Shown here: positions 16,907 to 63,864 of the stretch, in pieces | Layout of the letters: each line of letters starts with the position of its first letter | Position numbering within the stretch: the first letter of the stretch is position 1 | NCBI GenBank assembly: GCA_030262895.1 | Contig: JAJSZW010000003.1 | Location: 3,076 to 67,075 of the forward strand | Length of the DNA stretch: 64,000 nucleotides | Origin: Deltaproteobacteria bacterium | Lineage (GTDB): Bacteria > Desulfobacterota > Desulfobacteria > Desulfobacterales > ETH-SRB1 | Direction of reading: 5' to 3' | Translations under genes and position numbers: made by a program | Notes under the pieces: generated by a model | The model's database searches: none | What the model was told of the DNA's origin: nothing | Seen by the model: only the letters and a program-made list of their open reading frames with translations

Positions 16907-16910
16907 ATCA

Positions 16911-19754: not shown

Positions 19755-19757
19755 AAA

Positions 19758-19786
19758 ATTGGAGGTCGCAATTTGCGACTTCCAAT
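19758..19786. promoter_or_regulatory. Near-perfect 29-bp palindrome between the SNF2 and methyltransferase genes, followed by tataat
   Basis: attggaggtcgcaa-t-ttgcgacttccaat, where the single arm difference would be a G-U pair in RNA. tataat lies at 19792-19797 and the ATG at 19808. Confidence 0.4.
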
Positions 19787-19807
19787 CAAGATATAATGAG
19801 CTAATGT

Positions 19808-22800
19808 ATGAAATACACCACCATACGCATAGAAGGCGCCATACTTTCTGCTGATATACTTGACAAGATTGAGCAGGGAGACATTGGCGGCCGGCTTGCC
19901 AGGGATTTCGGCTTTGACACAAAAATAAAGGTCAAGGATGAAATCGCAAGGGCATGGGCAGATGCCCAGGATTTGTGGCGTATATTCAAAAGGCAGAAAG
20001 AAAGAGTTGCTGAGCAGGAATACGGAACCACAGAAACAAGAAAATACTGGATTATCCCTTTGCTTGGATTATTCGGATATGATGCCCAGCTCTCAAAAGC
20101 GGAAATTGTTCATGGAAAATCGTATGCAGTAACCCACCGCATAGCCAATCTTGACAGATTCCCGATTCATATAGTGGGGTTTAATGACAGCCTTGATAAA
20201 AAAAGAACAGACAGTGGACCCCGCATGTCACCACATGCCCTTTTGCAGGAATATATAAACCTTACCGAACACCTTTATGCAATTATTACAAACGGCATTC
20301 ATTTAAGGCTTTTGCGAAACAGCAGCAGGCTTATCAGGCTGTCATTTATCGAGTTTGATCTCGAAACCATGATGGAGGAAGAACATTATGCAGACTTTGC
20401 CATAATGTTTCGCCTTCTTCATTCAAGCCGCATGCCCGCAAAAATGGATCTGGGAGCAGAGAGCCTGATAGAAAAGTATCATCAGGATGCGCTGGATTCA
20501 GGGTCAAGAATTCGGGAAGGCTTAAGCAATGCGGTAGAAATCTCTATACGTTCTCTTGCAAACGGTTTTCTGCAACATACAGACAATGAAGAGCTTCGGG
20601 AGCAGCTTGATAATGAGGAAATATTAGCATCTAAGTTTTATCAGTATCAACTGCGTCTTATATACAGAATTTTGTTTCTCATGGTCATTGAAGAAAGAAA
20701 CCTTATTTTTCCTGATAATGTGGATAAGACCAAAAGAAAAATCTATTATCAATATTACAGTGTCAACCATCTTAGAAAGCTTTGTGAAAAACTGTATCTT
20801 GCCGATCAGCGGTTTAACGACCTCTGGATTGCATTAAAAAATACATTTCATCTTTTTGAGAGTGAAATAAAAGGAAAGCATCTGGGCCTAAGCCCTCTTG
20901 CAGGCGACCTGTTCGGATATAATGCCATCGACATATTAAACAAGTGCAATCTTGATAACAAGATACTTCTGGAATGCTTAAGAAGCTTAAGCGTATTTAT
21001 CAATAAAAAAACCGGCCAGAAAATGCGGGTGAATTATGCTTCGCTGAATGTAGAAGAATTCGGCTCGGTTTATGAGGGCATGCTCGAATATGATCCAATG
21101 ATTACAAAACAGGCCGGAGTTTATCAGTTTGATTTTGTAAAAGGCTCTGCTCGATCATCGTCAGGCTCTCATTACACGCCCGATGAGCTTGTCCAGCCGC
21201 TTATCAAGCATTCTCTGGATTATATTATTGAAGACAGGCTGAAATCATCCGACAAAAAATCAGAAAAGGAAAAAGCATTATTATCCATCAAGGTTTGTGA
21301 TGTTGCCTGCGGCAGCGGGCATATATTGCTTAATGCAGCAAGAAGGATTGGGGCCGAAGTTGCCAAGCTCAGGACAGGCGAGGACCAGCCGTCTCCTGCG
21401 CCTTTGCGCCAGGCAATCAGGGATGTGATCAAATCCTGTATTTATGGCGTGGATAAAAATCCTCTGGCTGTTGAATTATGCAAGGTTGCCCTGTGGCTTG
21501 AGGCGCACAATCCCGGAGAACCCTTGAATTTTCTTGATCATCATATCAAGTGGGGTGATGCGATTGTTGGACTGGCGCATAAGGAAGAGCTGGGAAACGG
21601 TATTGCTGATGAGGCGTTCAAGAAGATACCTGGTGATGACAAGGATATAAGGGCTGAGCTTGCGAAGAGAAATAAGACAGAAAGAAAAAGCGCTGAAAAA
21701 AGGAAAATTTTCTATGAACACTCTGAGTTCGGTTCTATAGATAGATCATTTACCGACATATCCAAAGTTTTCGAATCTTTTAATCGGCTTCCTGAAAACT
21801 CAATTAAAGAGATTGAACATAAACGCATAGAATATAAAAGATTGAGTTCAGGGGATAACTGGTGGCGACTAAAGACCTTAGCCGATATTCAGGTGGCACA
21901 GTTTTTTATTCCAAAAACAGAGGATAACGCAAAAAAGATAATTACAGATGACACGTATCGGGCACATCTGTCAGGTAGAAAACCGCTGGGAGGATGGGTC
22001 GCAGTAGCAAAAGCTATGGGTGTCGCAACGGAAAAGAAATTTTTTCATTGGTTCCTGGAATTTCCAGAAGTATTCAATCCCTCTCCTGCGGGAGATGGCC
22101 GGGGTGAGGGCAAAGGCGGGTTTGATTGTATTTTGGGGAATCCGCCGTTTTTGGGTGGAAAAAGAATTAGTACAAATTATGGTGATTACTATTTAAATTA
22201 TTTAAAAAAGAATTACGAACCAATTAAGGGTGCTACCTGTGATCTGGTAGCATATTTTTTTAGAAGAAATTTCGACTTATTAATGGAAAATAAATTTGTT
22301 TCATTAATTTCTACAAATACTATTGCACAAGGGGAAACAAGGAAAGGAAGTTTAGATAAGATAACTGAAACAGGTAGCATTAATTATGCTGTTAAAAGCA
22401 CAAAATGGCCAGGACTTGCAGCTGTCGAAGTTGCTTTGTTGAGCATTTATAAGGGTGACTGGAAAGGTCAATTTATTTTAAATGGAAAAACTGTGAATAG
22501 AATCTCACCTTTTCTTGATGATTCTGAAAAGGCACAAAATCCTGTACCTTTAAAACAGAATGAAAAGAAATCTTTTAAAGGTAGTTATGTTCTTGGCCTT
22601 GGATTTACATTAACAGAAATTGAAGCAAAAGCTCTAATAAATGCTGATTCAAAGTATAAAGATATTCTTTTCCCTTACTTGATTGGAGAAAATGTAAACA
22701 GGTCACCTATTCAAGCGCCCAGTAGATGGATTATAAATTTTTTCGACTGGCCTATGGAAAAATGTAAAACAGGATATCCAAATTGTTTTAATAAAATTGA

Positions 22801-27328: not shown

Positions 27329-28147
27329 ATGAAAAAAAACAGTTCTTTAGGAAAATATCGTGAAACACTTCATGAAATTATTTTTGAGGCTGATACACCA
27401 GCAGGTAAATTATTTGATATAATTTTAATTGTAAGTATCGTGCTTAGCGTAATGGTTGTAATGTTGGACAGTGTGAGCACGATCCGAAATTCATACAGCG
27501 GCTTTTTAGTTTTAAGCGAATGGTTTTTCACCTTTCTTTTCACAATTGAGTATTTTTTTAGGTTATCCTGTGTCGGTCGTCCTTTTAAGTATGCAACCAG
27601 CTTTTTTGGAATAGTAGATCTTCTGGCAATAATCCCGACCTATTTAAGCCTTTTTCTGCCTGGAAGCCAGTTCCTTATTGTTATTAGGATTCTTCGACTT
27701 CTTCGAATATTTCGGGTTTTCAAACTGGTTCAGTATCTTGTTGAAATCAGGGTGCTTAACCAGGCTCTGCGTGCAAGCCTGCGGAAAATTATTGTATTTT
27801 TATTTACTGTTTTTGCACTGGTGATAATTTTCGGTTCCATGATGTATGTCATAGAAGGCGAACAAAATGGTTTTACAAGCATCCCTCGAAGTATTTACTG
27901 GTCTATCGTAACGCTTACTACAGTCGGCTATGGAGATATATCGCCTAAAACAGGTTTCGGTCAGGCTCTGGCTGCTGTCATCATGATTATCGGTTATGCA
28001 ATAATTGCCGTACCTACAGGGATTGTAACAACTGAAATTGCTCGAGCCGCCGGAAGAAAGGTTTCCACTCAGGCGTGCCGGGTTTGCAGCGCAGAAGGCC
28101 ATGACATAGATGCGAAGTGCTGCAAATACTGCGGAGCAAAACTTTAA
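27329..28147 (+). CDS. voltage-gated-type (6TM) potassium channel with C-terminal zinc-ribbon
   Basis: S4-like RILRLLRIFRVFKL, selectivity filter TTVGYGD and C-terminal CRVCSAEGH..CCKYCGAKL. Confidence 0.85.
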   Translation: MKKNSSLGKYRETLHEIIFEADTPAGKLFDIILIVSIVLSVMVVMLDSVSTIRNSYSGFLVLSEWFFTFLFTIEYFFRLSCVGRPFKYATSFFGIVDLLAIIPTYLSLFLPGSQFLIVIRILRLLRIFRVFKLVQYLVEIRVLNQALRASLRKIIVFLFTVFALVIIFGSMMYVIEGEQNGFTSIPRSIYWSIVTLTTVGYGDISPKTGFGQALAAVIMIIGYAIIAVPTGIVTTEIARAAGRKVSTQACRVCSAEGHDIDAKCCKYCGAKL

Positions 28148-28377
28148 GTCCTTTGAAAAGCACTCCTTTTGGTCTCCCGCTACTGACGGAATGTCTGATT
28201 AAATGCTTTGAACTTGCTTTATAAACTCAAAAGATGTCCCCTTAGCACACTCCCTCCTATACGCAGAAATTAATACCAATGAGAATTGTTTTGATCTTAT
28301 GAGCATATTTTTCATTGACACCAGTCAATCTAAGCTTTATATTATGCTCAAATGAGCGTAACAGGAGAGAATATTCA

Positions 28378-28716
28378 ATGCCCCGACCCAAAAAGCCCAG
28401 ATTTGTATCCGCCTATCCGGCCATCGCTGCTTTTGTTCCTCAGGGAGTGACCGTTACCGGCGAGATTTTTATGTCCGTGGAAGAACTGGAAGCCATCAGG
28501 CTGAGCGATTTTGAACACCTGGATCAGGAAACGGCCGCAAATATGATGGAGGTATCCCGGCATACCTACGGCCGAATTCTTGCCAATGCCCGCAGCATCG
28601 TAGCAGAAGCCCTGGTTACCGGAAAAGCCCTGAAAATCGGGGGCGGTGCATATGAATTTCGCGGCATGGGCGGGCGTCGACGCAGAAGGGGCGGAAGAGG
28701 GCATGGAAGGAGGTGA
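28378..28716 (+). CDS. DUF134 (UPF0251) family protein
   Basis: MPRPKKPRFVS..F.PQG...GEIFMSVEELEAIRLSDFEHLDQETAANMMEVSRHTYGRIL..AR matches the DUF134 pattern. It has an Arg/Gly tail. ATG at 28378 follows aggagag. Confidence 0.85.
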   Translation: MPRPKKPRFVSAYPAIAAFVPQGVTVTGEIFMSVEELEAIRLSDFEHLDQETAANMMEVSRHTYGRILANARSIVAEALVTGKALKIGGGAYEFRGMGGRRRRRGGRGHGRR

Positions 28717-28721
28717 GCGAT

Positions 28722-28928
28722 ATGCCACAAAGAGATAGAACAGGCCCCCAGGGCCAGGGCCCGAAGACGGGACAAGGCCGTGGGAAATGTGGTCCTAAGG
28801 GCGGAAGCCCTGCGCCACAGAGTCAAGGCGGTATGGAAACCGTCGGAGGACAGAGAGCAGGCAGGGGTGCCGGCCAAGGTCAGGGAAAAGGCAGAGGAGT
28901 GGGACAAGGCCGTGGTAACAGACGGTAA
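28722..28928 (+). CDS. Gly/Arg/Gln-rich DUF5320-like protein lacking the coiled-coil tail
   Basis: MPQRDRTGPQGQGPKTGQGRGKC matches the DUF5320 N-terminal signature (MP..D.TGP.G.GP.TG.G.G.C). The rest is low-complexity GQGRG. Confidence 0.65.
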   Translation: MPQRDRTGPQGQGPKTGQGRGKCGPKGGSPAPQSQGGMETVGGQRAGRGAGQGQGKGRGVGQGRGNRR

Positions 28929-28963
28929 ACGGTAATCATTCAATCCAAAACAAAATTACATTG

Positions 28964-29144
28964 AGGGCTCGGTCAAAAATAACCTGGTAGAATTTGCGCC
29001 CGAATTTGCCGTAGATTTAATCGATCTGATTGAGCAAAACCGCAGGAATAGCGGGTTATTTCGAGGACTTTTGTGATTGAAGATCGGTTAAAGATATGGT
29101 GAAGTCGGGATGCAAAAATGCCAAGTTATTTTTTACCGGGCCCT
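28964..29144. repeat. MITE-like element, family D
   Basis: Termini agggctcggtcaaaaataac / gttattttttaccgggccct. The core aaccgcaggaata..atttcgagg is shared with 3180-3316. Confidence 0.7.
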
Positions 29145-29158
29145 AAGGAGGTAATACT

Positions 29159-29518
29159 ATGCCAGGATTTGATCAAACAGGTCCGACGGGTGCCGGCCCC
29201 ATGACCGGCGGAGCCAGGGGCCTTTGTAATCCTGCAAATGCGGGATACAATCCCAGGTTCACTGAAGGCTTTAGCTATGGTAGAGGTTTAGGGCTAAGAC
29301 GCGGATTTAGAGGTGGATTCGGCCCAGACCGGGGTTGGGGGCGCGGTTTTGGCAGAGGGTACGAATGGTATCCGCCTGCTGTTGGCCCGGCTTATCCGGA
29401 GGGCGCATCCGACAAGATAGACATGCTAAAGGCTGACGCCGATTACATGCAAAAATCATTGGATGCTATCAATAAACGAATTGAGAAATTGGAAAAGAAA
29501 CCTTCCGTATCATCTTAA
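29159..29518 (+). CDS. DUF5320 family protein
   Basis: MPGFDQTGPTGAGPMTGGARGLC N-terminal signature plus a C-terminal coiled-coil (ADADYMQKSLDAINKRIEKLEKK). Confidence 0.8.
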   Translation: MPGFDQTGPTGAGPMTGGARGLCNPANAGYNPRFTEGFSYGRGLGLRRGFRGGFGPDRGWGRGFGRGYEWYPPAVGPAYPEGASDKIDMLKADADYMQKSLDAINKRIEKLEKKPSVSS

Positions 29519-29557
29519 TTGAGCCGCAGTGCCGGGAGGCTGCATGATACTAAATGA

Positions 29558-29594
29558 ATTAAGGGGTGGTAAATATACTGCCCCTTAATTTTTA
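29558..29594 (+). terminator. Rho-independent terminator
   Basis: attaagggg / ccccttaat stem followed by ttttt, 40 nt after the stop. Confidence 0.75.
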
Positions 29595-29632
29595 ACTCAC
29601 CTGCAATTTAAATTAAGTATTTTGGGTAATCA

Positions 29633-29722
29633 TCAGACATCCAGATCATCAAGAGGACTCAAGACACCATGTCCTCCTTGTTTCAATACATGGGTGTAGA
29701 CCATGGTGAGCGATGAGTCGCT
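29633..29722 (-). pseudogene. last about 29 codons of an integron-integrase-like tyrosine recombinase
   Basis: The minus strand reads SDSSLTMVYTHVLKQGGHGVLSPLDDLDV-stop. Compare the IntI1 C-terminus [26 protein letters not shown]. No upstream part of the gene remains. Confidence 0.6.
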
Positions 29723-29966
29723 GCGATTTGGAAAATAAAAAGCATCGCCAGGCAGCGGTGCGGTTTTGCCGCCGATTGAATCAAACAGGAATAAAGCTGA
29801 TGGGACGACTGAAACTTAAGCCGGCTTTTTATGTTTCTCAGTATCCAATGCATGGATCAACTGCAACGCCGATACTGTGCATAATTTAACATAAGAAATC
29901 GGCCCATTTACCGTGATGTCTGACAATAAACTTTTTAAGGGTTCATTAAAACAGGAATTTTGATTA

Positions 29967-32900
29967 ATGAAATTTATTACAGATCTTCATGTTCATTCTA
30001 AATTTTCAAGAGCAACATCAAAAAATATGGATCTTGAAAATCTATATATTTCAGCTCAACTTAAAGGAATAACGGTTATCGGAACCGGCGATTTTACACA
30101 TAATGGATGGTTTTCAGAAATAAAAGAGAAATTACAGCCGGCCGAGGAAGGACTTTTTAAACTAAAAGATGAATTATCTCAAAAATGCGATGAAAAAGTT
30201 CCATTATCATGCCGCAATAAAGTCCGCTTTCTTTTAACTTCAGAAATCAGCAATATATATAAGAAAAATAATAAAACCCGAAAAAATCATAATCTTATAT
30301 TTATGCCTGATCTTGATTCCGTATATAATTTAAATTTAAAGTTAGATAAAATCGGTAACATAAAATCAGATGGAAGGCCTATTCTTGGTTTAGATGCCAG
30401 GGATCTTCTGGAGATAATTCTTGAAACATCAGAATCAGCACTCTTTATACCCGCTCACATATGGACCCCCTGGTTTTCGCTTTTTGGTTCAAAGTCAGGT
30501 TTTGATTCCATTGAAGAGTGTTTTGAAGATCTTTCTAATTATATTTATGCTGCGGAGACGGGTCTTTCTTCAGATCCACCGATGAACTGGAGGGTTTCAG
30601 GGCTGGACGGTCTTACGCTTGTATCAAATTCTGATGCCCATTCCCCTTTTAATCTCGGCAGGGAAGCGAATATTTTTAATACAAGCCTTTCTTATCCAAA
30701 TATTATATCGGCAATAAAATCAGGTAATCCAGGAGAATTTTTAGGAACATTCGAGTTTTATCCTGAGGAGGGGAAGTACCATCTTGACGGACACAGAAAA
30801 TGCAAAGTTTGTTTAAAGCCAAACCAGAGTATAGCAAATAACGGTTTGTGTAATGTATGTGGAAAACCCCTGACTCTCGGCGTATTATACAGGGTTGAAG
30901 AGTTGGCGGACCGACCCGAAGGTTTAAAACCGGAAAAATCACATCCATATTATAATGTTGTTCCTCTCGCAGAAATATTATCGGAAATTTTAAATGTAGG
31001 ACCAAAATCTAAAAAAGTTCAACGAAACTATATGGCTGCGCTCGAATCACTTGGGCCGGAATTTAAAATACTACATAATCTTTCTATAAATAATATTGAA
31101 AAAGCGGGTATTCCTTTACTTGGAGAGGCCGTTAGTCGGATGCGCGAAAAAAGAGTTGCTGTCTTTCCCGGCTATGATGGGGAATATGGAAAGGTAAAAA
31201 TTTTCAGACAGGGCGAGAAGGAAAAACTTTTAGGACAAAAACAACTGTTTGTTGTTCCTGAAGAGACAACTTCCCTTGTAGCAGACACTTTGGTTAAACC
31301 CTTAACGCATCAAAAAATCTGTAAAATTCCCAAAAAACCGGACCAAACAAAATATACTAAGCAAAAGCAAACAGCAGCTCCGCTTAATAAAGACCAGCTT
31401 AAAGCGGTTAAGCATAAAAAAGGCCCCTTGTTGATTGTAGCCGGCCCTGGCACAGGTAAAACACTTACACTCACACACAGAATCGCTTATATCATCACGG
31501 AAAGAAAGGTTTCGACCGGAAATATACTTGCTGTAACATTTACAAATAAAGCAGCTCAGGAAATGAGGGACAGGCTTTTGTTGTTAATGGATAGCTCAAA
31601 AAAGCTGCCGGAAGTTACTACATTTCATGCTTTTTGTTTTAAAATTTTAAAAGATCTGAATAACGATAAAAATTATACGATAATAGATGATTATGATCGA
31701 AAGGCACTAATAATAGAGGCAATAAAACAGGCTGAAATTAAAGGAGTTAAAGTTTCAACAAAGCCCTCAGCCCTGTTAAATATGATTGTTTTTGCCAAAC
31801 AAAACATACTTTCTCCGCAAGATAATTTAAAAGAAATAAATGAGTCGGAAACAGAAGAGCTTTCAGCTATCTATAAGGAATATCAAAGCATTTTATCAAT
31901 CCAGGGACTTTACGATTATGAAGATTTGATTTTTAATATAGTAAAGCTGTTAGAATCAGACATGGATTTTTGTAAAAAATATCAAGACAAATATAAATAT
32001 ATATTTATTGACGAATATCAGGATCTAAACCAGGGGCAATATAGAATTATAAAAGCCCTTACAAAGCCTGACAGTAATATATGTGTTATAGGTGATCCCG
32101 ACCAGTCAATATATGGATTCAGGGGTTCGGATGTTCGTTATTTTAAGAGCTTTCTTAGAGACTACCCCGAAGCTAAGGTTATAAATCTAAATCAAAACTA
32201 TCGATCAACCGAAACCATACTTGAGGCGTCATATCAGACCATAAAAAACCATAGAGATTTCAATGTATTAGGTTCGGCCGCACGTGTTTATTCTGATATT
32301 AAAGGTACAAAAACAATAAACATCATTGAGCTTGTTTCGGAAAAGGCCGAGGCCGTAGCTATTGGCAAGATAATCGAAAAAATGGTGGGAGGAATTGGAT
32401 TTCATTCTATTGACTACGGAAGCGTTGATAGTTCTTGTACAAAAAAACAGATGGGTTTTTCTGATTTTGCCGTGTTGTTTAGATCCTGGATTCAAAGCAA
32501 GATCATTGCAGATGTTTTTGATAATGCCAATATTCCATATCAGATAATAAGCAGAGAAAATGCTTTTAATTTAAAGGGTGTTTCGGAGCTGTTATCTTTT
32601 TCGAAAATAATTGACGATAAAGGTTCTTATATTGATTTTGAAAGAATTATAGATTTAACAAAACCAGGTATCGGTAAAAAAAACCTAATAATATTCAAAA
32701 CATGGTGTTATAAAAACAAATTTTCGCTTAAAGAAGCTATGTTAAAAACTTGTCGTTTTCCTGTTGATGGTATGAGCAGGTCAAGCCAGCAGAAGCTTTA
32801 TGGTTTTATTAATAACATCTTAAAAATAAAAGAAAAGATTAAAGATTTGAGCCTTGAGGAAAAACTTTTGTATTTATCTGAAAAAACAAAAATCAAAGAT

Positions 32901-40918: not shown

Positions 40919-41024
40919 TATAGGCTTTCAGATAATTAATTTAACAAGGCCAGAAGGAGGAAGGCGTATTAGTTATACGTCGACGACTGATAACACAGTG
41001 AAATTCTTTATCTGAAAGCCTATA
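40919..41024. repeat. MITE-like element, family A (divergent copy)
   Basis: Termini tataggctttcagataa / ttatctgaaagcctata. It overlaps the stop codon of the next gene. Confidence 0.8.
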
Positions 41025-54962: not shown

Positions 54963-55451
54963 ATGCTAAACAAACTGATCCAAATAATAACCAATTCTCT
55001 TGATGAAACCCGGGCTCTTGGGGAAAAAACAGGAAAACACCTTGAGCCCGGAACTGTTTTGGCCTTAACCGGCGACCTTGGAAGCGGAAAAACTACATTT
55101 GTTCAAGGTTTAGCTAAAGGTCTCGATGTTCCGGATAATTATTACATAACAAGCCCAACCTACACTTTGATAAACGAATATCCCGGTCGATGTCATTTAT
55201 TTCATGTTGATCTTTATCGCATAGAAAATTACGCTGATTTTGATGATATCGGCCTTTACGAAATACTCCGCAGTGACGGAATTGTAGCTATCGAATGGGC
55301 AGATAAACTTCCGAAAAATCTTCTTCCGGAATATTTGGCAATTCATATAGATATATTGAATAATGAATCACGAAAAATTAGTATGGCTGCGCATGGACTT
55401 AGAGAGGAAAATCTGATAAGAAGAATAAATAGGGAGAAGAGATGGGATTAA
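54963..55451 (+). CDS. tsaE: tRNA t6A biosynthesis ATPase TsaE
   Basis: LTGDLGSGKTTFVQGLAKGL and HVDLYR motifs. Confidence 0.88.
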   Translation: MLNKLIQIITNSLDETRALGEKTGKHLEPGTVLALTGDLGSGKTTFVQGLAKGLDVPDNYYITSPTYTLINEYPGRCHLFHVDLYRIENYADFDDIGLYEILRSDGIVAIEWADKLPKNLLPEYLAIHIDILNNESRKISMAAHGLREENLIRRINREKRWD

Positions 55452-56659
55452 TTGTTCAAAAATACGGCGGCACCTCTGTAGCTGATCTTGAGCGGATCCG
55501 TTATGTCGCGAATAGAGTTGCAAAAACCTTTGACAAGGGAAATAATGTAGTTGTAGTCCTTTCGGCCATGGCCGGCGTCACAGACGGTCTTCTCGATATG
55601 GCCGCCCGGATTACCGACTCTCCCGAAAAGCGTGAGCTTGATGTTCTGCTATCCACAGGAGAGCAGACAACCGCAGCCCTTCTATCCATAACATTAAAAT
55701 CAATGAACTACCCTGCAAAATCATTGCTGGGATATCAGGCAGAAGTTTTAACAAACCGCGATTTTGGTAATGCACGTATTGTTGACATAGGAGCCGGTCG
55801 CATTAAAGAGTTTGTTGAAAAAAACAACATCGTGGTTGTTGCCGGGTTCCAGGGCTGCGACCCTGATGGAAACATCACAACTCTTGGCCGCGGAGGCTCA
55901 GACACATCTGCCGTAGCAATAGCCACCGCAATCAAGGCCGATATATGTGAGATTTATACTGACGTTGACGGAATTTACACCGCTGATCCGAATATTTGCA
56001 AAAAAGCAAGAAAACTCGATAAAATTTCCTATGACGAAATGCTGGAGATGTCGAGCCTTGGCGCCAAGGTCTTGCAGATTCGTTCGGTTGAATTTGCAAA
56101 AAAATATAATGTCCCAGTGCATGTTAGATCATCTTTCAGTGAGGAGGAGGGAACTATGGTTGTTAATGAGGATTCTGATATGGAACATCTTGTAGTATCC
56201 GGCATAACCTGTAATAAAAATGAAGCGCGTATTACCCTGAAAAAAGTTCCCGATCAGCCGGGGATCGCTGCAAAAATTTTTTCTCCCATTGCAAAGTCGG
56301 GCATTCTTGTTGATATGATAATTCAAAACACCCGGGCAGGAGGCCTGACCGACCTTACTTTCACGGTTGCAAAAACTGACTTCAACAGAGCGATAGAAAT
56401 ATCGAAAAAAGTAGCTGAAGAAATTGGAGCAGAAGAGGTATTAATTGCCGAAAATATCGCAAAAGTATCTGTTACAGGTGTTGGCATGAAGAGTCACTCG
56501 GGGGTTGCATCAAAAATGTTTTCCACTCTTGCCAATGAAAATATTAATATTAGATTGATAAGCACTTCAGAAATCAGGATATCCTGTGTAGTTGAAGAAA
56601 AGTACGCGGAACTGGCGATTCGTGTCCTTCACTCAGCTTTTGGATTGGATAAAGAATAA
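55442..56659 (+). CDS. lysC: aspartate kinase
   Basis: IVQKYGGTSV, two C-terminal ACT regions, 405 aa. Confidence 0.92.
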   Translation: MGLIVQKYGGTSVADLERIRYVANRVAKTFDKGNNVVVVLSAMAGVTDGLLDMAARITDSPEKRELDVLLSTGEQTTAALLSITLKSMNYPAKSLLGYQAEVLTNRDFGNARIVDIGAGRIKEFVEKNNIVVVAGFQGCDPDGNITTLGRGGSDTSAVAIATAIKADICEIYTDVDGIYTADPNICKKARKLDKISYDEMLEMSSLGAKVLQIRSVEFAKKYNVPVHVRSSFSEEEGTMVVNEDSDMEHLVVSGITCNKNEARITLKKVPDQPGIAAKIFSPIAKSGILVDMIIQNTRAGGLTDLTFTVAKTDFNRAIEISKKVAEEIGAEEVLIAENIAKVSVTGVGMKSHSGVASKMFSTLANENINIRLISTSEIRISCVVEEKYAELAIRVLHSAFGLDKE

Positions 56660-57375
56660 AGAACCGACTCGATCTCCTCTGCAATATGAATGGCTGCTTC
56701 TTTAGGATTTTTTGCATCTCTTATGGGCCTGCCGATTATCAAATAATCTGATCCATTATCAATTGCCTGGGCCGGAGTAGTTATGCGCCGTTGATCATCT
56801 TTGTTCATACCCTCCCAAGATGGTCGTATTCCAGGGGTTAACGCAATAAAACCTTTTCCAAAATTTTCTTTTATCATTTTAACTTCAAGACCGGAGCACA
56901 CGATTCCGGCACATCCCGCATCCTTAGCCATTTTTGCTCTGTTCATTACAAGCCGTGATATATCTGAAGAAAATTCAGAACGAAAGCCGGCAGCATCAAT
57001 ATTTTCTCCTGATACGCTTGTTAACACCGTAACACCAACCACGCCTACTTTCCCGGCACTTCCGGCAACAGCAGCTTCAAGCATTTCTTTATTTTCTCCA
57101 CAATGAACTGTTGCAAAATCAACACCTAAATCAGCAATGCTCGCCATTGCACGTGAAACAGTCGCAGGAATATCATGGAGTTTAAGATCCAGAAAGATTT
57201 TAGCTTTTCCTGAAGTCTTTATAATTTTAATGATTTCAGGCCCGGAGCTTATAAAAAGCTCAAGCCCTACCTTGAACATACCAACATATTCTGAAAGAAG
57301 TTCAATATATTGCTCCGCTTCCTTTAAAGAAGGTACATCCAGAGAAAAAACCATATAATCTTTTGCTGTTTTCAT
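56629..57375 (-). CDS. pyrF: orotidine 5'-phosphate decarboxylase
   Basis: FLDLKLHDIPATV and IIGRPI motifs. Confidence 0.9.
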   Translation of the reverse strand: MKTAKDYMVFSLDVPSLKEAEQYIELLSEYVGMFKVGLELFISSGPEIIKIIKTSGKAKIFLDLKLHDIPATVSRAMASIADLGVDFATVHCGENKEMLEAAVAGSAGKVGVVGVTVLTSVSGENIDAAGFRSEFSSDISRLVMNRAKMAKDAGCAGIVCSGLEVKMIKENFGKGFIALTPGIRPSWEGMNKDDQRRITTPAQAIDNGSDYLIIGRPIRDAKNPKEAAIHIAEEIESVLYSLSNPKAE

Positions 57376-57692
57376 AAAAACAACTCTCTCAGCTTATCGA
57401 GGTCATCAGCCCATTTTAGCTTGCCAGTAGCCAGTGCTATGTCAAAACGACGGATCAGCAGAGCCGAACAGGCAAGCATGTGACAGTTTTCCGGGGTTTG
57501 CATCAGCGAAAAACTGCGTTTGGCATGGAAAAACATGCGGTTGAAATTATTGCAGGCAAATGCTGCTGCCGCTGCTTTATAATGAGTCCGGGATTTTTCT
57601 TCAATATTCAGTAAAGGTCTCAGGTCGGTTTTGCAGCGACGGCAGGTGAGCTTGCCTTTATATCCGGCATTGCAGGTTGGACAGCGTTCCAT
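57372..57692 (-). CDS. zinc-ribbon protein (106 aa), unknown function
   Basis: MERCPTCNAGYKGKLTCRRCKTDL (CxxC-N9-CxxC). ATGA overlap with pyrF and 15 nt downstream of the Hsp70 gene. Confidence 0.65.
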   Translation of the reverse strand: MERCPTCNAGYKGKLTCRRCKTDLRPLLNIEEKSRTHYKAAAAAFACNNFNRMFFHAKRSFSLMQTPENCHMLACSALLIRRFDIALATGKLKWADDLDKLRELFL

Positions 57693-57707
57693 ATTATCAG
57701 CCTTGTT

Positions 57708-59459
57708 CTATCCCATATAAAAAAGGATATCGTCGAGTTCTTTTTTAAACGTTTCTGCATCTTCCATTCGGTTTTTACTTAAAGCATCACGAATATCTTC
57801 TATGAGATTAATCATTTCATCGCGGTCGTCTTCGGAAGCTTGTGCCAGCTTTGCTTCAGCCCTACTGATAATGCCGGCATATTCGGACGGCAGTTCTTTT
57901 ATGTCAGCCTCTGTTTGCACTTTTTCTTTCAGAGGTGTTTCCGATTCCCTTCCTTCAGTCCAGAGTCCGTTGATGCGGTCTTGAGTTTGTGATAATTCTT
58001 CGTCGGAAAATCTGGAAATAGCATTTTCGATCACCGCTTTGATATTGTTGCCGGTCTTTTTTTCAACTGCTTTGATTTTTAAGATTCCATTTAGATCCAG
58101 GTCAAAATGCAAAATGATCTCGCTGTTTGAAGGGGCCCGGGTCAGATTAAACATGTAATTTCCAAGTAGGATATTATCCAGGGCATCAGGTGCTTCTCCC
58201 TGATATATCTTGACATCCACAACTTCCTGATTGTCGCACATAGTATAGAAAACATCGCTTTTTCTTGCCGGAAGCTTGGTGTTGCGCCGAATCAGCGCAA
58301 CAAACATCGTCCCACTCGGCTCCCCATCTACTTCGCCTACGACGGAAGTGCCGAATGTATATGGAGTAATATCTACCAGCACACCGGAATGTTCCAGTCC
58401 CATTTCCCTTCCTGCCTGCATGCCGGCACCGATAGCTACACACAGATCCGGGTCTATTTCACTGTGAGGCAGATGCCCGATCTTTTCTTCCAGCATTTGA
58501 GATATCCGTGGAATACGGGTTGACCCGCCCACCATGATTATTTTGTTGATGGCCGAAGGCAGCATGGCTGCATCCTTTAATGCCTTATTCACTGATTCCA
58601 TGGTGCGGGCAAGATCTTCTTCAACCATTTCCTCGAACTCCGTTCTCGACAGTTCCAGCGACAGGTGAAGATCCTTAAATCCTTTTTTGCCGATGTGATC
58701 TTCTTCAATAGTTGTATAAGGTACTGATGATAATTGAATTTTTGCACCTTCGGCAGCCCGCTTGAGTCTTGCCATAACCGCTGGTTTATCTTTTACCGAA
58801 TAATTAAACTCAGTTTCCATGTGTTTTACAAGATGATCGACTATCTTTAGATCAAAATCGTCGCCTCCAAGCTGATTATCGCCGGTGCTCGACAGGACTT
58901 CCACAACGCCGGCCTCTATTTTTACAATGGAAACATCAAAAGTACCGCCTCCAAGATCGTAGACCAGAACTCTTTGGGTTTCCGGGTTGGTGCTTTCATA
59001 GGCTAAAGACGCCGCTGTGGGCTCGTTGATAATCCTGACTACTTCAAGCCCGGCAATCTCACCTGCCTCACGAGTGGCCTGCCTTTGAGCATCGGTAAAA
59101 TAGGCCGGTACCGTGATTACTGCCTTTGAAATCGTACGATTGATTTTTTTCTCGGCACGTTCTTTAAGCTCTTTAAGGATAAAGGCCGAAATCTCCTGGG
59201 GTGAAAAAGATAATTCACCCATTTTAAGTTTCTGGTCCGTGCCCATAAACCTTTTGACGGAAAGAACGGTTTTTTCCGGGTTTATTAATGCCTGGTTGCC
59301 GGCTTCGGCACCTACGATGATATCTCCATTTTCCCCAATGCTGACGCATGAGGGCAAAATACCATTATCGTTATCGGTGATAATCTCCGTTGTGCCGTCA
59401 AAAATAAAAGCAACTTCGGAGTTTGTAGTGCCCAGGTCTATTCCAATAATTGGTTCCAT
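57708..59459 (-). CDS. non-canonical Hsp70-family ATPase (583 aa)
   Basis: Motifs IGIDLGTTNS, DLGGGTFDVSIV and VGGSTRIP. The substrate-binding region is divergent (VDITPYTFGTSV) and the C-terminal lid is short. Confidence 0.9.
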   Translation of the reverse strand: MEPIIGIDLGTTNSEVAFIFDGTTEIITDNDNGILPSCVSIGENGDIIVGAEAGNQALINPEKTVLSVKRFMGTDQKLKMGELSFSPQEISAFILKELKERAEKKINRTISKAVITVPAYFTDAQRQATREAGEIAGLEVVRIINEPTAASLAYESTNPETQRVLVYDLGGGTFDVSIVKIEAGVVEVLSSTGDNQLGGDDFDLKIVDHLVKHMETEFNYSVKDKPAVMARLKRAAEGAKIQLSSVPYTTIEEDHIGKKGFKDLHLSLELSRTEFEEMVEEDLARTMESVNKALKDAAMLPSAINKIIMVGGSTRIPRISQMLEEKIGHLPHSEIDPDLCVAIGAGMQAGREMGLEHSGVLVDITPYTFGTSVVGEVDGEPSGTMFVALIRRNTKLPARKSDVFYTMCDNQEVVDVKIYQGEAPDALDNILLGNYMFNLTRAPSNSEIILHFDLDLNGILKIKAVEKKTGNNIKAVIENAISRFSDEELSQTQDRINGLWTEGRESETPLKEKVQTEADIKELPSEYAGIISRAEAKLAQASEDDRDEMINLIEDIRDALSKNRMEDAETFKKELDDILFYMG

Positions 59460-59474
59460 GTTTTGTCTCCATGC

Positions 59475-59599
59475 TATAGACTTTCAGATAATTCATTTCA
59501 CAAGGCTAGAAGGAAAAATCTGAGTAAGTCGTGCTTATGTGTACGTCGTCGAGGATTTTGACTGATAACGCAGTGAAATTATTTATCTGAAAGTCTATA
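59475..59599. repeat. MITE-like element, family A
   Basis: Termini tatagactttcagataa / ttatctgaaagtctata. It fills the gap between the GrpE-like and Hsp70 genes. Confidence 0.9.
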
Positions 59600-60382
59600 T
59601 TTGTTCACTATTACTTCAGCAGTCCGGATTACCTCGTCTTGCCGGACAAATCCGCCCACCTGTTCTTCAATCACTATCCCTGCTTCCTTTTGCGGGTCAC
59701 TTCCCTGCCCAACGGCCCGCATGGTAGCGGAATCAAATGGTTGATCTAAAGCGGTCACCGGAGTTATCCCGACATAGTTCAGGGCCCGGTCGAACCTGCG
59801 CAGGGCCATTTCATACCCTTCAACTATACCTTCAATTCCCTGCGGCGGACGGACAAACAATCGTCTGGTTGCAGCCGCAGTCTTTGCAGCTTTAAGTCCC
59901 CGAATCAGGCCATCCCTGATATCCAGAAACGGTAATACAGCCTTTTTTTCACTGGCCAGGCGTATACGCTCTTCAAGAGTTTCGAGTTTTGATGTTCTGT
60001 TCTTTAACAGCTTTAGTGTTTCCTTCAAGCTATCAATAAAGGATTGTTGAATTCTCAGCGTATTGTTCTGTTCGCGGTTCTGGAATTTTATCTCCTGCCT
60101 CAGAGCGGTAAATTCCATCAGCAAGGTATATAGATCGCAAGAATCCATATCAACCTTTCGATCAATGGGCATCTCTTCCGGCAGCTCCGTCATCCATGCC
60201 TTAAAATCCTCCATGACCTTTGCTTTCCATTTATTTGCTGGAACTTCAGCCGTGTCAGACGCATAAGCCTTGATCCTCGCAGATAAAAGAATCGAAGTCC
60301 ATTTCATAAGCGGCAAAAGAACATTATCTAAAACACTCCGCTTAAAGCGTTTAGCGAATTTAGCTATATAAAATTTCAGCAT
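59579..60382 (-). CDS. GrpE-like nucleotide exchange factor with long N-terminal extension
   Basis: C-terminal GIEGIVEGYEMALRRFDRALNYVGITPV..LDQPFDSATMRAVG......GIVIEEQVGGFVRQDEVIRTAEVIV follows the GrpE beta-domain pattern. Confidence 0.8.
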   Translation of the reverse strand: MLKFYIAKFAKRFKRSVLDNVLLPLMKWTSILLSARIKAYASDTAEVPANKWKAKVMEDFKAWMTELPEEMPIDRKVDMDSCDLYTLLMEFTALRQEIKFQNREQNNTLRIQQSFIDSLKETLKLLKNRTSKLETLEERIRLASEKKAVLPFLDIRDGLIRGLKAAKTAAATRRLFVRPPQGIEGIVEGYEMALRRFDRALNYVGITPVTALDQPFDSATMRAVGQGSDPQKEAGIVIEEQVGGFVRQDEVIRTAEVIVNKYRLSDK

Positions 60383-60391
60383 TGAAAACCT

Positions 60392-60682
60392 CTACACCTC
60401 ATCAAGCAGCTCCTTGAGCCCCGCTCGTCTTCGAACCGGTGTTCGGGCGCGTCCAAGAGAAAGTAGCGCCTCTTCCGCATCTGATACTGACAGAGTGCCA
60501 AACAATTTCCCCCGGATGCGGGCTCTGGGGGTTTTGATCTGTTCATAGGCGCTTGTGATTTCCTGGAATCGATTCGGATCTTTTTCCGGCGTATACCGCT
60601 TAATAAGCTCAAGATAACGTTTTCTTATCTCTTCATCAGTAACATCTAAGTCGAGTCCAAGGATAAAATAACTTGATAACAT
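60392..60682 (-). CDS. J-like domain protein (96 aa) with TPE in place of HPD
   Basis: SYFILGLDLDVTDEEIRKRYLELIKRYTPEKDPNRFQEITSAYEQI aligns by eye with J-domain helices I-III. Confidence 0.75.
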   Translation of the reverse strand: MLSSYFILGLDLDVTDEEIRKRYLELIKRYTPEKDPNRFQEITSAYEQIKTPRARIRGKLFGTLSVSDAEEALLSLGRARTPVRRRAGLKELLDEV

Positions 60683-60687
60683 ACTAT

Positions 60688-63384
60688 TTAAGCCTTTCCA
60701 AAAAGAAATATCCGGGCTTCACTGGAAAGTGCATTTATCCCTTCCGAGTCAAGAAGGCCGGCAAGGGTTGAAAAGCCCTTGACCATATCCGGTTCCTTTT
60801 TTTTCATAACTTTCATTATTTTGTTGATTACAAAATCTGGCGTTCCACGAAGACCTGAATCGTCAATGAACGCTTCTAATCCTTTAATAATTTTATCAAG
60901 CTGACTTTTAACAAATGTCTGATCAAAAACATTCGGGTTATGTTCCAGCGCCTCCAAAAATTCAAATAAATCTTCCAAATCATCCGGCCCATCATATTCG
61001 TCATCGTCGTCCATGAAAGAATCATCGTCAAATAAATCATAGGGCGATGTCATATCGTCCATAGGCCCGAAGGATGGTACAGGCATAATGAAATCAAAAC
61101 CTTCAAGCGCTGATTTTAACGGCCCTGATACATGTTTTGCAAGTCGTCTGGCTGCGGTCCTAAGCGATTCCAGATCCGATTCTGAAGTTTTGTCCTTTAC
61201 CTTCTGGAAAGCTTTCAGATCCATGAACAGCTCTTCTGTCAGATGCCGGATTACAACCTGGTAAAATTCGAGCAATACCTTTACTCTCCCTCCGGCATTT
61301 TTTATCCTGCGTTTTATTTCATCCAGAGCCGGTTTAAACAGCTCAGCATCAACAAGGATGTCAAGGACAGGGATAATATCGACGTCATCAACATGTTTGA
61401 GTATATTTTTACAACGATATAAAATGACACCGGCAATATGCCTTGAACGGGTAAGCGGCCGCACCTTCTTACTTAGCGGCTTGAGCAAACTAACGATATG
61501 TGCGGAAGACAAATCCTTTATCGATTTGGCATAATGCCGGAAAGCTCTGTCCAATTCGCTAAAGATCTTTTTATCCCATTCGGGGAACCGGCCTGTCGCA
61601 TCCAGAATCAACATAGCTATGGTACTTATCTGTTCAAAAGGAGACAAGTGTGCGACGGCCCTGTCGATGACAGATAGGACATTTCCGGCACCGGCTATAA
61701 CCTTGCCGTCGAACAAGGACAATTGCCCCTGTTCTGTAATTTTAAACAGTATTTGTTTTTCAACCACCAGCGGCAGGGTGGCCTTACCGCTCAATGCATC
61801 GGCTTTTTCAATATCCCTGGATGCCAGATGAAGCTTTTTCCTCTTGATGCTGTTATCAGCAGAAATCAGCAGCGAAATCACATGCCGGTCAATAACTCTG
61901 CTGTCATGGGGAGCGCGCTTCATAGCCTCTTTTAAGATATTTTCGGCTTTGCGAAAGGCGTTTTTTTCGTAGTAAATGGTGGACAGTTCCAGGCAGGGAA
62001 AAGGGTCATCCGGGAAATAGTCCAGCATCTGTATTAACCCTTCTTCTACCAGATTTTTTGTCTGCCTGGAATAGCGGGTCAGGCTTGCCAACAGTTCATA
62101 ACCACGCCGATTTTCAGGGTCCAGCCGGATTGCCTTTAATGTCATTTCAACTATGAATTCATCGGGGTTATCGGAAGTGATTCCCAGCACCGGCCCGTGC
62201 AATTCAAAATCGCATCCTAAGCTTTGAACGAAAAAGTTCTCCTTGTGGATTTTTTCAACAGCATGCAGTAGAATCAGGGCCTGGGCAATCTTGGCGTGTT
62301 CACGGTCAGGGAATTCCGCATCTATATGCATAAGATACTGGCCGGTGTTAATTAATGGTTGCTCAAAGTCAAAAAATTCGGTTTTCGCAGTTAGAAGTTC
62401 AGACTGGTTTTCAGGAAGCAACCGTCTGATAAAACGGAAATATTCATAGTCGTTGATCGTGTTGTCCCAGGTAAAGCGCCAGACCAGTTCAAGGAGATGG
62501 GAAATTGCATGGTCGGAATCATCAGGACAAATTAATTCAGCGATACTTCTGAGTTGGCCGGCTGCATCTTTAAAACGCTTTTTTTTCAGATGTTCGAGAA
62601 CCTCAGCAACTTTTTTTTCAGTATTTGCCGGACCTTCCCACAGGCAGGCAAGGTCGGCAGGATTTTTTTTCAGCTTTTTCACCACCCTGTAAATGGGAAA
62701 TTCCTCTGGAATCATGGAAAGCGCTCGCTGCATCCCGGAATCATCTTCATTATAAAAACATACCATAGCAAGACAAAACATGCGGGCAGGAGCAAAAGGT
62801 GAGATTCTCGATACAGGCTTTAGGCAGACCAAAGCAGATTCCCAATCACCACTGTGTATAAGCTCGGCTGCCCGAAAAACCGGGGCAGCATCTTTTTTCA
62901 GGGGCACCCTCTCATCAAGGTTATCCAGCAGTTCCCATTGACGGTAAATAAGGAATTGTCCTGCAAGATACTGCTCTATGGCATTGGAGCGGCTATTTTC
63001 CCCGACATACCTGTTATAGGTGCTTATCGAGTCTTCAATGGAAGCGCCTTTCATAAAGGCAATCAGATCCATGTCGGAAAGCTTATCGTACGTTGGCATA
63101 AAAGTAGCGGCCTGGCAATGAATTGAATCTGCTTCCACGTTCATCCCCTTTTGTCTGAGCTGGGATTCCCGCAGAAGATAGGCCCTGAACAGCATCGGAT
63201 TTATGTCGTCTGTCGGAGCGCCCTTTTTAATTGCCAGTTTTAACGACGAAATCGCATCTCTGGCTCTTCCAGCCTCAAGAAACTGTTTGCCCTGATTTAT
63301 AAGCTGAGGCAAAGACACATTTTTAATATTCAGGTGCGACTTTTTCTTGCGAGCTTTTTTCTGTTTTTTCTTTTTTGAACCCAT
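60688..63384 (-). CDS. 898-aa alpha-helical protein with scattered TPR-like motifs, polybasic N-terminus and acidic C-terminal patch
   Basis: N-terminal MGSKKKKQKKARKKK, TPR-like AIRLDPENRRGYELLA and YYEKNAFRKAENILKEAMKRAP, and an acidic DDDSFMDDDDEYDGPDDLEDLFEF patch. No enzymatic motif seen. Confidence 0.75.
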   Translation of the reverse strand: MGSKKKKQKKARKKKSHLNIKNVSLPQLINQGKQFLEAGRARDAISSLKLAIKKGAPTDDINPMLFRAYLLRESQLRQKGMNVEADSIHCQAATFMPTYDKLSDMDLIAFMKGASIEDSISTYNRYVGENSRSNAIEQYLAGQFLIYRQWELLDNLDERVPLKKDAAPVFRAAELIHSGDWESALVCLKPVSRISPFAPARMFCLAMVCFYNEDDSGMQRALSMIPEEFPIYRVVKKLKKNPADLACLWEGPANTEKKVAEVLEHLKKKRFKDAAGQLRSIAELICPDDSDHAISHLLELVWRFTWDNTINDYEYFRFIRRLLPENQSELLTAKTEFFDFEQPLINTGQYLMHIDAEFPDREHAKIAQALILLHAVEKIHKENFFVQSLGCDFELHGPVLGITSDNPDEFIVEMTLKAIRLDPENRRGYELLASLTRYSRQTKNLVEEGLIQMLDYFPDDPFPCLELSTIYYEKNAFRKAENILKEAMKRAPHDSRVIDRHVISLLISADNSIKRKKLHLASRDIEKADALSGKATLPLVVEKQILFKITEQGQLSLFDGKVIAGAGNVLSVIDRAVAHLSPFEQISTIAMLILDATGRFPEWDKKIFSELDRAFRHYAKSIKDLSSAHIVSLLKPLSKKVRPLTRSRHIAGVILYRCKNILKHVDDVDIIPVLDILVDAELFKPALDEIKRRIKNAGGRVKVLLEFYQVVIRHLTEELFMDLKAFQKVKDKTSESDLESLRTAARRLAKHVSGPLKSALEGFDFIMPVPSFGPMDDMTSPYDLFDDDSFMDDDDEYDGPDDLEDLFEFLEALEHNPNVFDQTFVKSQLDKIIKGLEAFIDDSGLRGTPDFVINKIMKVMKKKEPDMVKGFSTLAGLLDSEGINALSSEARIFLFGKA

Positions 63385-63622
63385 AAATTATAAAATTTTC
63401 TTTACTATTTCCTCCTAAACCAAATACACTATTTTCATTTTTTTTTCAAGACTGTCTTTGCGTCAACTAGGGAAACGTCAAAGTCAGAGCTAAAGTGCTA
63501 ATATTTAGAGTTTTTGGGGACCTCAAAATCCGAAATACGAATATCGAAACTTGAAACAATATCTAATTTCGAATGTCAAATGTTTTACATCAATACTAAG
63601 CTGTGCTATTATAAAATTGTTT

Positions 63623-63795
63623 GTAACTACTCAGGTGGATAGGCTGAAGGCTGAAGACTGTTAGGAAAAAGCGCATTTTGAAGCCATGTTTGGTGCAAGA
63701 ATCAGATGTTTCCGCTAAAATACGGCAATCGTGCTTTTCTGACCCCCTTCAGCCTTCAGTCTAAACAGCTTCAGCCTGACTACGTGAGTAGTCAC
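63623..63795. repeat. MITE-like element, family B (long copy)
   Basis: gtaactactcaggtggataggctgaaggctgaagactgttagg .. cctgactacgtgagtagtcac. Its first about 85 nt reappear inverted at 3735-3834. Confidence 0.85.
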
Positions 63796-63864
63796 AATTG
63801 GTTTTTAAATATATTTTTGGCGCAATTTTAAACGCTAAGGAACGGGGAAACAAAGAGGTACTCA

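Follow-up and report, generated by a model that had tools for sequence, protein, structure and literature searches.

Three bacterial Hsp70s are recognised, DnaK, HscA and HscC, of which the latter two dispense with GrpE, and many DnaK-derived paralogues are functionally unexplored (PMC8215388). A 2026 review likewise describes the other DnaK derivatives as functionally unexplored and as always coexisting with a bona fide DnaK (PMC13580251). Two described arrangements resemble the one reported here. In E. coli, the specialised Hsp70 HscC is encoded beside private J-proteins and a helical-repeat protein (DjlB/DjlC and the Sel1-repeat protein YbeT, with YbeR/YbeU as neighbours), and in Myxococcus xanthus, a former "deltaproteobacterium", the DnaK homologue SglK (MXAN_6671) is co-transcribed downstream of a private GrpE, GrpS (MXAN_6672; bioRxiv 10.64898/2026.08.28.747804). 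The present work concerns a minus-strand gene cluster in a 64,000-nucleotide stretch of contig JAJSZW010000003.1 (assembly GCA_030262895.1) from a Deltaproteobacteria bacterium, hereafter the window. The cluster encodes an Hsp70, a dedicated GrpE-type factor, a J subunit with a degenerate His-Pro-Asp (HPD) motif, and two family-specific partners, namely a tetratricopeptide-repeat (TPR) solenoid and a small zinc-ribbon protein.

An initial reading made from the nucleotide sequence alone (the sequence-only reading) had proposed a dedicated Hsp70 machine with private co-chaperones, a proposal that is supported by co-inheritance of the genes and by the features that the Hsp70 retains. We consider it reasonably probable that the five-gene operon encodes a specialised and self-contained Hsp70 machine that differs from DnaK, HscA and HscC and uses the solenoid as its adaptor or platform. 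The same reading had named both of the precedents above. Its account of the E. coli hscC neighbourhood (djlB, djlC and the Sel1-repeat gene ybeT) is correct, though it describes a different system; the sglK–grpS example stands as regards the adjoining private GrpE homologue, but no J protein is adjacent there. It had also known of no functional description of the arrangement, and a full-text literature search likewise found none for the five-gene module, which is not proof of absence.

Conservation and distribution of the module

Loci were sampled by scanning one genome per GTDB species with one peptide pattern. This yielded 64 loci, from Desulfonema, Desulfococcus, Desulfatirhabdium, Desulfobacter, Desulfocicer, Desulfotignum, Desulfosalsimonadaceae and Desulfarculaceae; that the scan returned Desulfobacterota alone is due to the use of a single pattern. 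Open reading frames (ORFs) of the loci were searched with the window proteins and with family hidden Markov models. A locus was eligible if 3.8 kb or more of sequence followed the solenoid gene (n = 54, i.e. 48 of the 64 scan loci and six distant loci). The five genes co-occur across genomes, as the sequence-only reading would have it: all five stand in the same order in 50 of the 54 eligible loci and in distant lineages too, which is far beyond chance. Of the four remaining loci, L009 is interrupted by an 8-kb insertion, the solenoid gene of L052 has decayed, L058 probably carries an Hsp70 frameshift, and L068 reflects an ORF-calling artefact, its source gene calls containing all five genes. 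Within individual loci, the roughly 8 kb of L009 are inserted between the solenoid and J genes (12730-20845), L039 carries two insertions inside the module (12650-14179 and 17226-18385), and in L052 the other four genes are absent.

The distant members are six contig loci (L068-L073, representing five distinct places) that keep the five-gene order, four of them planctomycete-like with 65% G+C (GC). L068 and L069, both of 65% GC, have PSCyt1, PSCyt2, PSD1 and DUF1501 genes as neighbours, which we take to be typical of Planctomycetota; L072 and L073 are flanked by sulfatase genes, and L071 is a further distant locus with the module order. In L070 (64% GC) the order holds once an uncalled zinc-ribbon gene is read from the sequence. 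This gene (MEACPTCGAAYRG...) lies in the stretch from ~14750 onward, about 300 nt after the Hsp70 gene, where the source annotation calls an opposite-strand ORF of 183 aa instead.

Median intergenic gaps across the loci are 24, 0, 46 and 17 nt, the J and GrpE genes overlapping in 29 of 60, and the pairwise-identity matrices of the five proteins correlate with one another (Spearman r = 0.66-0.91). From this spacing and conservation we infer that the five genes form an operon inherited as a unit; the inheritance looks vertical. The flanks are not conserved, each flank family being found in at most 11 of ~60 loci. Recurrent flank genes are of the housekeeping type: pyrD, MrpORP, a gene for a DUF134-like protein and tsaE, together with lysC and pyrF in the window. 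In ~10 Desulfobacterales loci (such as L012, 4762-7158) the region upstream of the module carries, on the opposite strand, genes for the iron-sulfur carrier ATPase MrpORP (NF041136, 535 bits) and for the DNA-binding DUF134-like protein. No second copy of the module was found in any locus examined, no second Hsp70 within the window, and no plasmid copies of the 898-aa solenoid protein in PLSDB.

These surroundings bear on the idea of a conflict or defence system built around the Hsp70, after the GAP1-N2 GTPase-centred systems of Kaur et al. (2020), in which HSP70, GrpE and proteins containing or fused to DnaJ or TPR domains are co-encoded (PMC7159879). Such systems are enriched in multicellular or filamentous forms, which the Desulfobacterales include. 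Those systems are, however, defined by the GTPase and by proteins with FNIII repeats, and they are found chiefly in Actinobacteria and Firmicutes (PMC7159879); neither the window nor the gene tables for L068-L073 contain a GAP1-N2 GTPase or an FNIII-repeat gene, and GTPase, effector and EAD domain are absent in or beside the module. PADLOC gave no match for four of the proteins and a marginal one for the Hsp70 (PDC-M61B, 18.7 bits). With the housekeeping flanks (tsaE, lysC, pyrF, pyrD, MrpORP), the single copy per locus, the vertical-looking inheritance and the lack of plasmid copies also against it, a role in defence appears very improbable.

Subunits of the proposed machine

The Hsp70 scores 479 bits against Pfam HSP70 (PF00012) and reaches neither the DnaK equivalog cut-offs (NF001413, 513.3 vs. 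648 bits; TIGR02350, 504.4 vs. 822.55 bits) nor that of HscA (TIGR01991, 387.8 vs. 708.55 bits); isc genes were found in none of the module loci. Its closest solved structure is Geobacillus DnaK (2v7y), the PDB match spanning residues 1-491, and it is less identical to E. coli HscC (33.4%, full length) than to E. coli DnaK (38.6%, residues 1-491). Within the clade the identity of the Hsp70s is at least 0.45, compared to at most 0.40 with DnaK and at most 0.36 with HscC. Residues were called after aligning it three-way with both DnaK and HscC of E. coli. The catalytic residues K70, E171, D194, T199 and D201 are kept in a DnaK-like, actin-like nucleotide-binding domain, followed by the interdomain linker VLVDITP, a β-type substrate-binding domain (SBD-β) and a helical lid. 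R167, N170, T173, Q378, L391 and P419 are all present, among them the four residues that contact the HPD motif (R167, Q378, L391 and P419; PMC8215388), and the GrpE-signature loop has the same length as in DnaK. Loop L1,2 of SBD-β carries an 8-residue insertion, GEVDGEPS, and the lid is HscC-like with a 19-residue deletion that aligns with HscC. Thus, the Hsp70 is apparently catalytically competent with an intact J-docking surface, as judged from these residues.

The C-terminus of the Hsp70 is near-invariant, with the pattern L-[ED]-[DE]-[IL]-L-F-[YF]-[ILM]-[GE] in 49 orthologues; it reads LDDILFYMG here and LAELLFFIE in the 65%-GC subgroup. The Hsp70 homologues listed (at least 120) are all orthologues of the module Hsp70. 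Among the matches listed, NCBI names the orthologues "Hsp70 family protein", the authors of the Desulfonema genome use "DnaK-like", and JGI pipelines assign "molecular chaperone DnaK". The latter label, and the mere grouping of Hsp70, GrpE and J-domain genes, could suggest a divergent housekeeping DnaK/DnaJ/GrpE operon. This is the least credible of the alternatives and hardly to be expected, as both DnaK cut-offs and all GrpE equivalog cut-offs are missed, identity to E. coli DnaK is 38.6%, the J partner is a 96-aa protein without HPD motif, glycine/phenylalanine-rich (G/F) region, zinc finger or client-binding domains, NCBI and the Desulfonema authors use the names "Hsp70 family protein" and "DnaK-like", and derived paralogues occur only alongside bona fide DnaK (PMC13580251). 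Judged by the features that define DnaK, HscA and HscC, the Hsp70 is none of the three, and it is probably paralogous to the housekeeping DnaK system.

The GrpE-like protein matches Pfam GrpE (PF01025) with 71.5 bits (cut-off 25.8) over profile positions 17-165 of 165. All NCBIfam GrpE equivalog cut-offs are missed (best score 39 vs. 137 bits), and the protein is therefore assigned to a divergent subfamily. An N-terminal extension of ~100 aa carries the motif WK..A..DF..WL..LP, which is private to the family; 56 of 57 orthologues have it in the form W[KR]x5-7DFxxW[LIM], and the 65%-GC subgroup keeps it. In Desulfobacterales the motif follows ~50 aa of basic, aromatic character. In most loci the gene begins inside the J gene or directly after it, and no complete locus lacks an adjoining GrpE gene. 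In one of the 65%-GC loci (L069, 9832-12480) the protein bears a low-complexity Gly/Ala/Glu-rich tail of ~650 aa and reaches 882 aa in total.

The J subunit is recognised by Pfam DnaJ (PF00226) with 36.8 bits (cut-off 27.8), and its family profile matches PDB J-domains with E = 3e-11, "pPe" being aligned to HPD. Between helices II and III, HPD is found in none of 62 orthologues, the site reading TPE (31), SPE (12), PPE (10), PPD (4), PPG (3) or PPS (2); we term the protein J-like because the motif is missing in all of them. The proline is invariant and an acidic residue (E/D) occupies the D35 position in 57 of the 62. The C-terminal tail RRR.GL.EL is conserved, also in the 65%-GC subgroup. The complete loss of HPD alongside an Hsp70 that keeps every HPD-contacting residue is what one would expect if a canonical J-domain still docked at this site. 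The J-like subunit could then be a negative regulator or a pure tether, as Pam16 is for Pam18, with ATPase activity triggered by housekeeping DnaJ or by the client, and the module would not be self-sufficient. This is possible, if doubtful: with the proline invariant and E/D at the D35 position in most orthologues, two HPD contacts out of three could be kept, and strict co-inheritance shows that the J-like gene is needed, without indicating for what purpose.

The small protein has no Pfam or NCBIfam match. All 54 orthologues share the cysteines of CPxC-x9-CxRC, which are predicted to form an N-terminal zinc knuckle. In the AlphaFold2 (AF2) model, built on a shallow alignment with a mean predicted local distance difference test score (pLDDT) of 80.6, the knuckle is followed by a three-helix TPR/MIT-like bundle; no significant structural neighbour of the model was found in the PDB (no match below E = 1).

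The 898-aa protein, the fastest-evolving member and always the first gene in the operon, matches Pfam TPR_19 (27.5 bits, cut-off 25) and no other family. Its homologues fall into 114 clusters at 90% identity, and the named sources are Desulfobacterota or taxonomically unassigned metagenome-assembled genomes (two labelled Pseudomonadota), most records being nameless. They are annotated as "hypothetical protein" or "tetratricopeptide repeat protein", apart from a single JGI entry labelled "Flp pilus assembly protein TadD". An exhaustive profile search of 1.84 billion representatives returned 208 solenoid proteins at E ≤ 1e-30, among them a subgroup of ~785 aa without the C-terminal acidic linker and tail domain; across the family the length is ~800-1100 aa. 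Unusually long homologues were screened for extra domains and Rosetta-stone fusions and gave TPR matches alone. The AF2 model (mean pLDDT 85.5) is all-alpha with 53 helices. Along the protein, an invariant TPR core at ~452-497 (DDPFPC..NAFRKAE..RAPHD) is followed by an acidic, disordered linker (768-801) and then by a small helical domain at the C-terminus. The N-terminus is polybasic, the net charge of the first 25 residues lying between +4 and +12 in each of 56 orthologues. Foldseek against the PDB retrieved the TPR scaffolds Ski3, Ctr9, IFT-A, Naa15, OGT and Tom70 with probability 1.0, yet with TM-scores of at most 0.22; Hop TPR domains, like those of Tom70, are among these weak fold matches. 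A specific structural homologue was rejected on these grounds, as generic TPR scaffolds alone were retrieved. Membership of the protein in a characterised family, which would have told against the sequence-only reading, was rejected on the generic profile match, the low TM-scores and the names in the source records.

The solenoid may also be viewed as the client or product of the module, which would fold, assemble or disassemble it into a higher-order structure, with the J-like and the zinc-ribbon protein as its assembly factors. Its fast evolution combined with a fixed first place in the operon would fit, as would the use of large TPR solenoids as typical structural scaffolds, the conserved hydrophobic ALExFDF (~residue 760) next to the disordered acidic linker, and the fact that no other conserved candidate client was seen near the module. 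Still, the confident, compact AF2 model is not suggestive of a protein with a folding problem, the invariant TPR groove residues resemble a ligand-binding site, and a chaperone devoted to one protein seldom requires an exchange factor of its own. We regard this explanation as rather unlikely.

Under the preferred reading of a self-contained machine, the solenoid would act as platform or adaptor, choosing or holding a particular client or determining where the machine acts; because its N-terminus is polybasic, a site near an anionic surface (membrane or nucleic acid) is suggested. The J-like protein would tether the platform to the Hsp70 via its conserved C-terminal tail and dock on the R167/Q378/L391/P419 surface, with at most weak or conditional triggering of ATP hydrolysis, whereas the GrpE-like protein would reset the Hsp70 cycle. 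By analogy with eukaryotic systems, the [ED][ED]ILFY tail of the Hsp70 may be read by a helical-repeat partner, either the invariant TPR of the solenoid or the bundle of the small protein. The J tail, the Hsp70 tail, the N-terminal motif of the GrpE-like protein and the zinc knuckle persist even in the 65%-GC subgroup.

Several points weigh against this model. The J-like protein may not activate at all, because loss of the HPD histidine normally abolishes ATPase stimulation, and the acidic residue of its motif is also lost in the distant subgroup (PPS, PPG). Reading of the tail by a TPR partner is an analogy only, drawn from the EEVD co-chaperones. In the window, a mobile-type element sits between the GrpE-like and Hsp70 genes (see below), and operon status is deduced from spacing. 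Finally, canonical DnaK/DnaJ/GrpE is placed in the same genomes by indirect evidence and by a published generalisation (PMC13580251). A bolder version of the model is put forward as a tentative suggestion: the module would represent a fourth prokaryotic Hsp70 class, an obligate five-subunit machine with an HPD-less J subunit, a private GrpE and an [ED][ED]ILFY tail read by TPR-type partners. It would be a bacterial counterpart of the EEVD/TPR logic, serving a client or a site in the cell in Desulfobacterota and in planctomycete-like bacteria.

Gene layout and lineage-specific changes

The six minus-strand ORFs of the sequence-only reading were reproduced with their coordinates, lengths, gaps and overlap, and its domain guesses were borne out by Pfam and NCBIfam profiles for TPR, DnaJ, GrpE, HSP70 and pyrF, the small protein remaining without a family. 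Spacers of 5, 9, 119 and 15 nt, in gene order, separate the five module genes; the small gene and pyrF share 4 nt (ATGA). The features are collected in Table 1.

Table 1. Features of the module and its immediate surroundings in the window
Feature	Position	Strand	Basis
TPR-like solenoid, 898 aa, all-alpha	60688..63384	-	ORF; Pfam TPR_19
J-domain homologue, 96 aa, TPE at the HPD site	60392..60682	-	Pfam DnaJ
GrpE homologue, 267 aa	59579..60382	-	Pfam GrpE
Palindromic element resembling a miniature inverted-repeat transposable element (MITE), ~126 nt	59474..59599	unassigned	repeat copies; comparison with the L004 junction
Hsp70 paralogue, 583 aa	57708..59459	-	Pfam HSP70
Zinc-ribbon/three-helix protein, 106 aa	57372..57692	-	ORF; no family match
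pyrF	56629..57375	-	NF001273, 246 bits
Promoter-like site TTGACG-18-AAAAAT	63437..63466	-	consensus scan; 53 nt upstream of the 898-aa start codon

The 119-nt gap between the GrpE-like and Hsp70 genes had been described as filled by a MITE. A repeated palindromic element is indeed present, and its extent is refined to ~126 nt, reaching into the GrpE-like gene. It matches its own reverse complement and is present in at least three copies in the window; those outside the operon lie at 512-626 (90.5% identical to the operon copy) and 40919-41024 (73.6%); fragments of the terminal repeat occur elsewhere, e.g. at 804-830. In a 90%-identical relative (L004) the element is absent at this junction, where the gap is 14 nt. 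Comparison of the two junctions places the insertion on the native stop codon of the GrpE-like gene, for which the element now supplies the last 6 codons and the stop. The insertion is lineage-specific and no functional part of the module.

A second change affects the small gene. Close relatives (P0115, L004) encode a protein of ~91 aa, the native length, while the 106-aa form with another C-terminus and the ATGA overlap with pyrF is limited to the window and to L001, of the same lineage. The altered 3' end (57372-57440) indicates a lineage-specific rearrangement that joined pyrF (start 57375) to the operon. The sequence-only reading had described the module as chained to pyrF. The gene is no part of the system, since pyrF neighbours the module in this species only (L001), and a functional link to pyrF was rejected for the same reason. 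Directly downstream of the module in 7 loci lies pyrD, a class-1B-type dihydroorotate dehydrogenase gene (NF005574, 419 bits; e.g. L025, 15870-16838). Two different pyrimidine-synthesis genes (pyrF here, pyrD in these 7 loci) are thus occasional neighbours, and their recurrence beside the module may be residual synteny.

Downstream of the cluster, the aspartate kinase gene lysC (plus strand, 55442-56659) converges with pyrF, the 3' ends overlapping by 31 nt (56629-56659), and tsaE (54963-55451) overlaps the start of lysC by 10 nt. Upstream, the 580-nt intergenic region ahead of the 898-aa gene contains a long inverted repeat, gactgaaggctgaaggg ... cagtcttcagccttcagcc, at ~63640-63800. It is unlike the MITE-like element and may be another mobile or regulatory element. 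The site TTGACG-18-AAAAAT is, on weak evidence, a putative operon promoter; the region holds 17 promoter-like sites vs. 12.5 ± 4 in shuffled sequence, i.e. no excess, and a terminator scan of the region likewise gave a count no higher than the shuffled expectation. In the 64-kb window, no Rfam family reached its gathering threshold and a tRNA scan found no tRNA genes. The GC content of the window peaks at 0.477 in 28001-30000 over a background of ~0.40.

Comparison with known Hsp70 systems

The module comprises ~200 representative clusters at 50% identity, spread over Desulfobacterota and 65%-GC planctomycete-like contigs, and as such offers a clean, testable case. Two textbook rules are broken: the J partner is HPD-less family-wide, and a specialised Hsp70 keeps a private GrpE. 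Learning how hydrolysis fires without the histidine, and what is recruited by the solenoid, would broaden the known regulation of Hsp70, and working out the module would give a function to several families annotated merely as hypothetical.

With regard to the J-like subunit, the cold-adaptation system AtcJ-AtcABC of Shewanella oneidensis offers a parallel in size. AtcJ is a protein of ~94 aa in which the J-domain is prolonged at its C-terminus by a short stretch binding a partner from the same operon (PMC6715715). Unlike in the module, its J-domain is functional and uses the housekeeping DnaK, and neither a private Hsp70 nor a private GrpE is encoded in the operon. Kinship of the J-like protein with AtcJ/ActJ was rejected on the basis of its score with NCBIfam ActJ (NF050028; 17.5 bits, E = 0.0045, cut-off 150), the missing HPD and the different architecture.

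The Hsp70 tail invites comparison with the eukaryotic TPR co-chaperones Hop, CHIP and Tom70. Here too, an Hsp70 with an acidic-hydrophobic C-terminal tail is encoded together with TPR proteins, a likeness that is drawn by analogy. To our knowledge, an Hsp70 C-terminal tail encoded beside TPR proteins is known in eukaryotes, not in bacteria. The module tail is [ED][ED]ILFY, however, and not EEVD, and no sequence homology to those co-chaperones was found.

Among bacterial systems, SglK/GrpS is matched in that the module likewise has a GrpE-like gene immediately upstream of the Hsp70 gene. It differs in its J partner, which is non-adjacent and predicted to be SgmC (MXAN_1106), and no solenoid or zinc-ribbon partner is reported for it (bioRxiv 10.64898/2026.08.28.747804). 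The likeness to HscC extends beyond the gene neighbourhood to the Hsp70 itself. By the criteria of PMC8215388, both share an insertion in loop L1,2 of SBD-β, a shortened helix B and lid, and similar C-terminal helices; in addition, the segment corresponding to DnaK 76-101 is lost, "EVDG" is deleted near DnaK D211, and N stands at the position of DnaK D481. Conversely, HscC is without the GrpE-signature loop and has no exchange factor, whereas the module Hsp70 keeps the loop and has a GrpE gene adjacent. DjlB and DjlC are both tail-anchored J-domain proteins of ~475-480 aa that stimulate HscC, compared to a soluble, HPD-less J-like protein of ~96 aa, and the hscC locus is without an 800-1100-aa solenoid or a zinc-ribbon partner.

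The housekeeping DnaK-DnaJ-GrpE system draws on the same three families, with the same catalytic and allosteric residues and an Hsp70 that, to judge from these residues, would be GrpE-dependent in the module as well. The module departs from it in the HPD-less mini-J, the N-extended GrpE, the HscC-like lid, the LFY C-terminus and two extra obligate partners.

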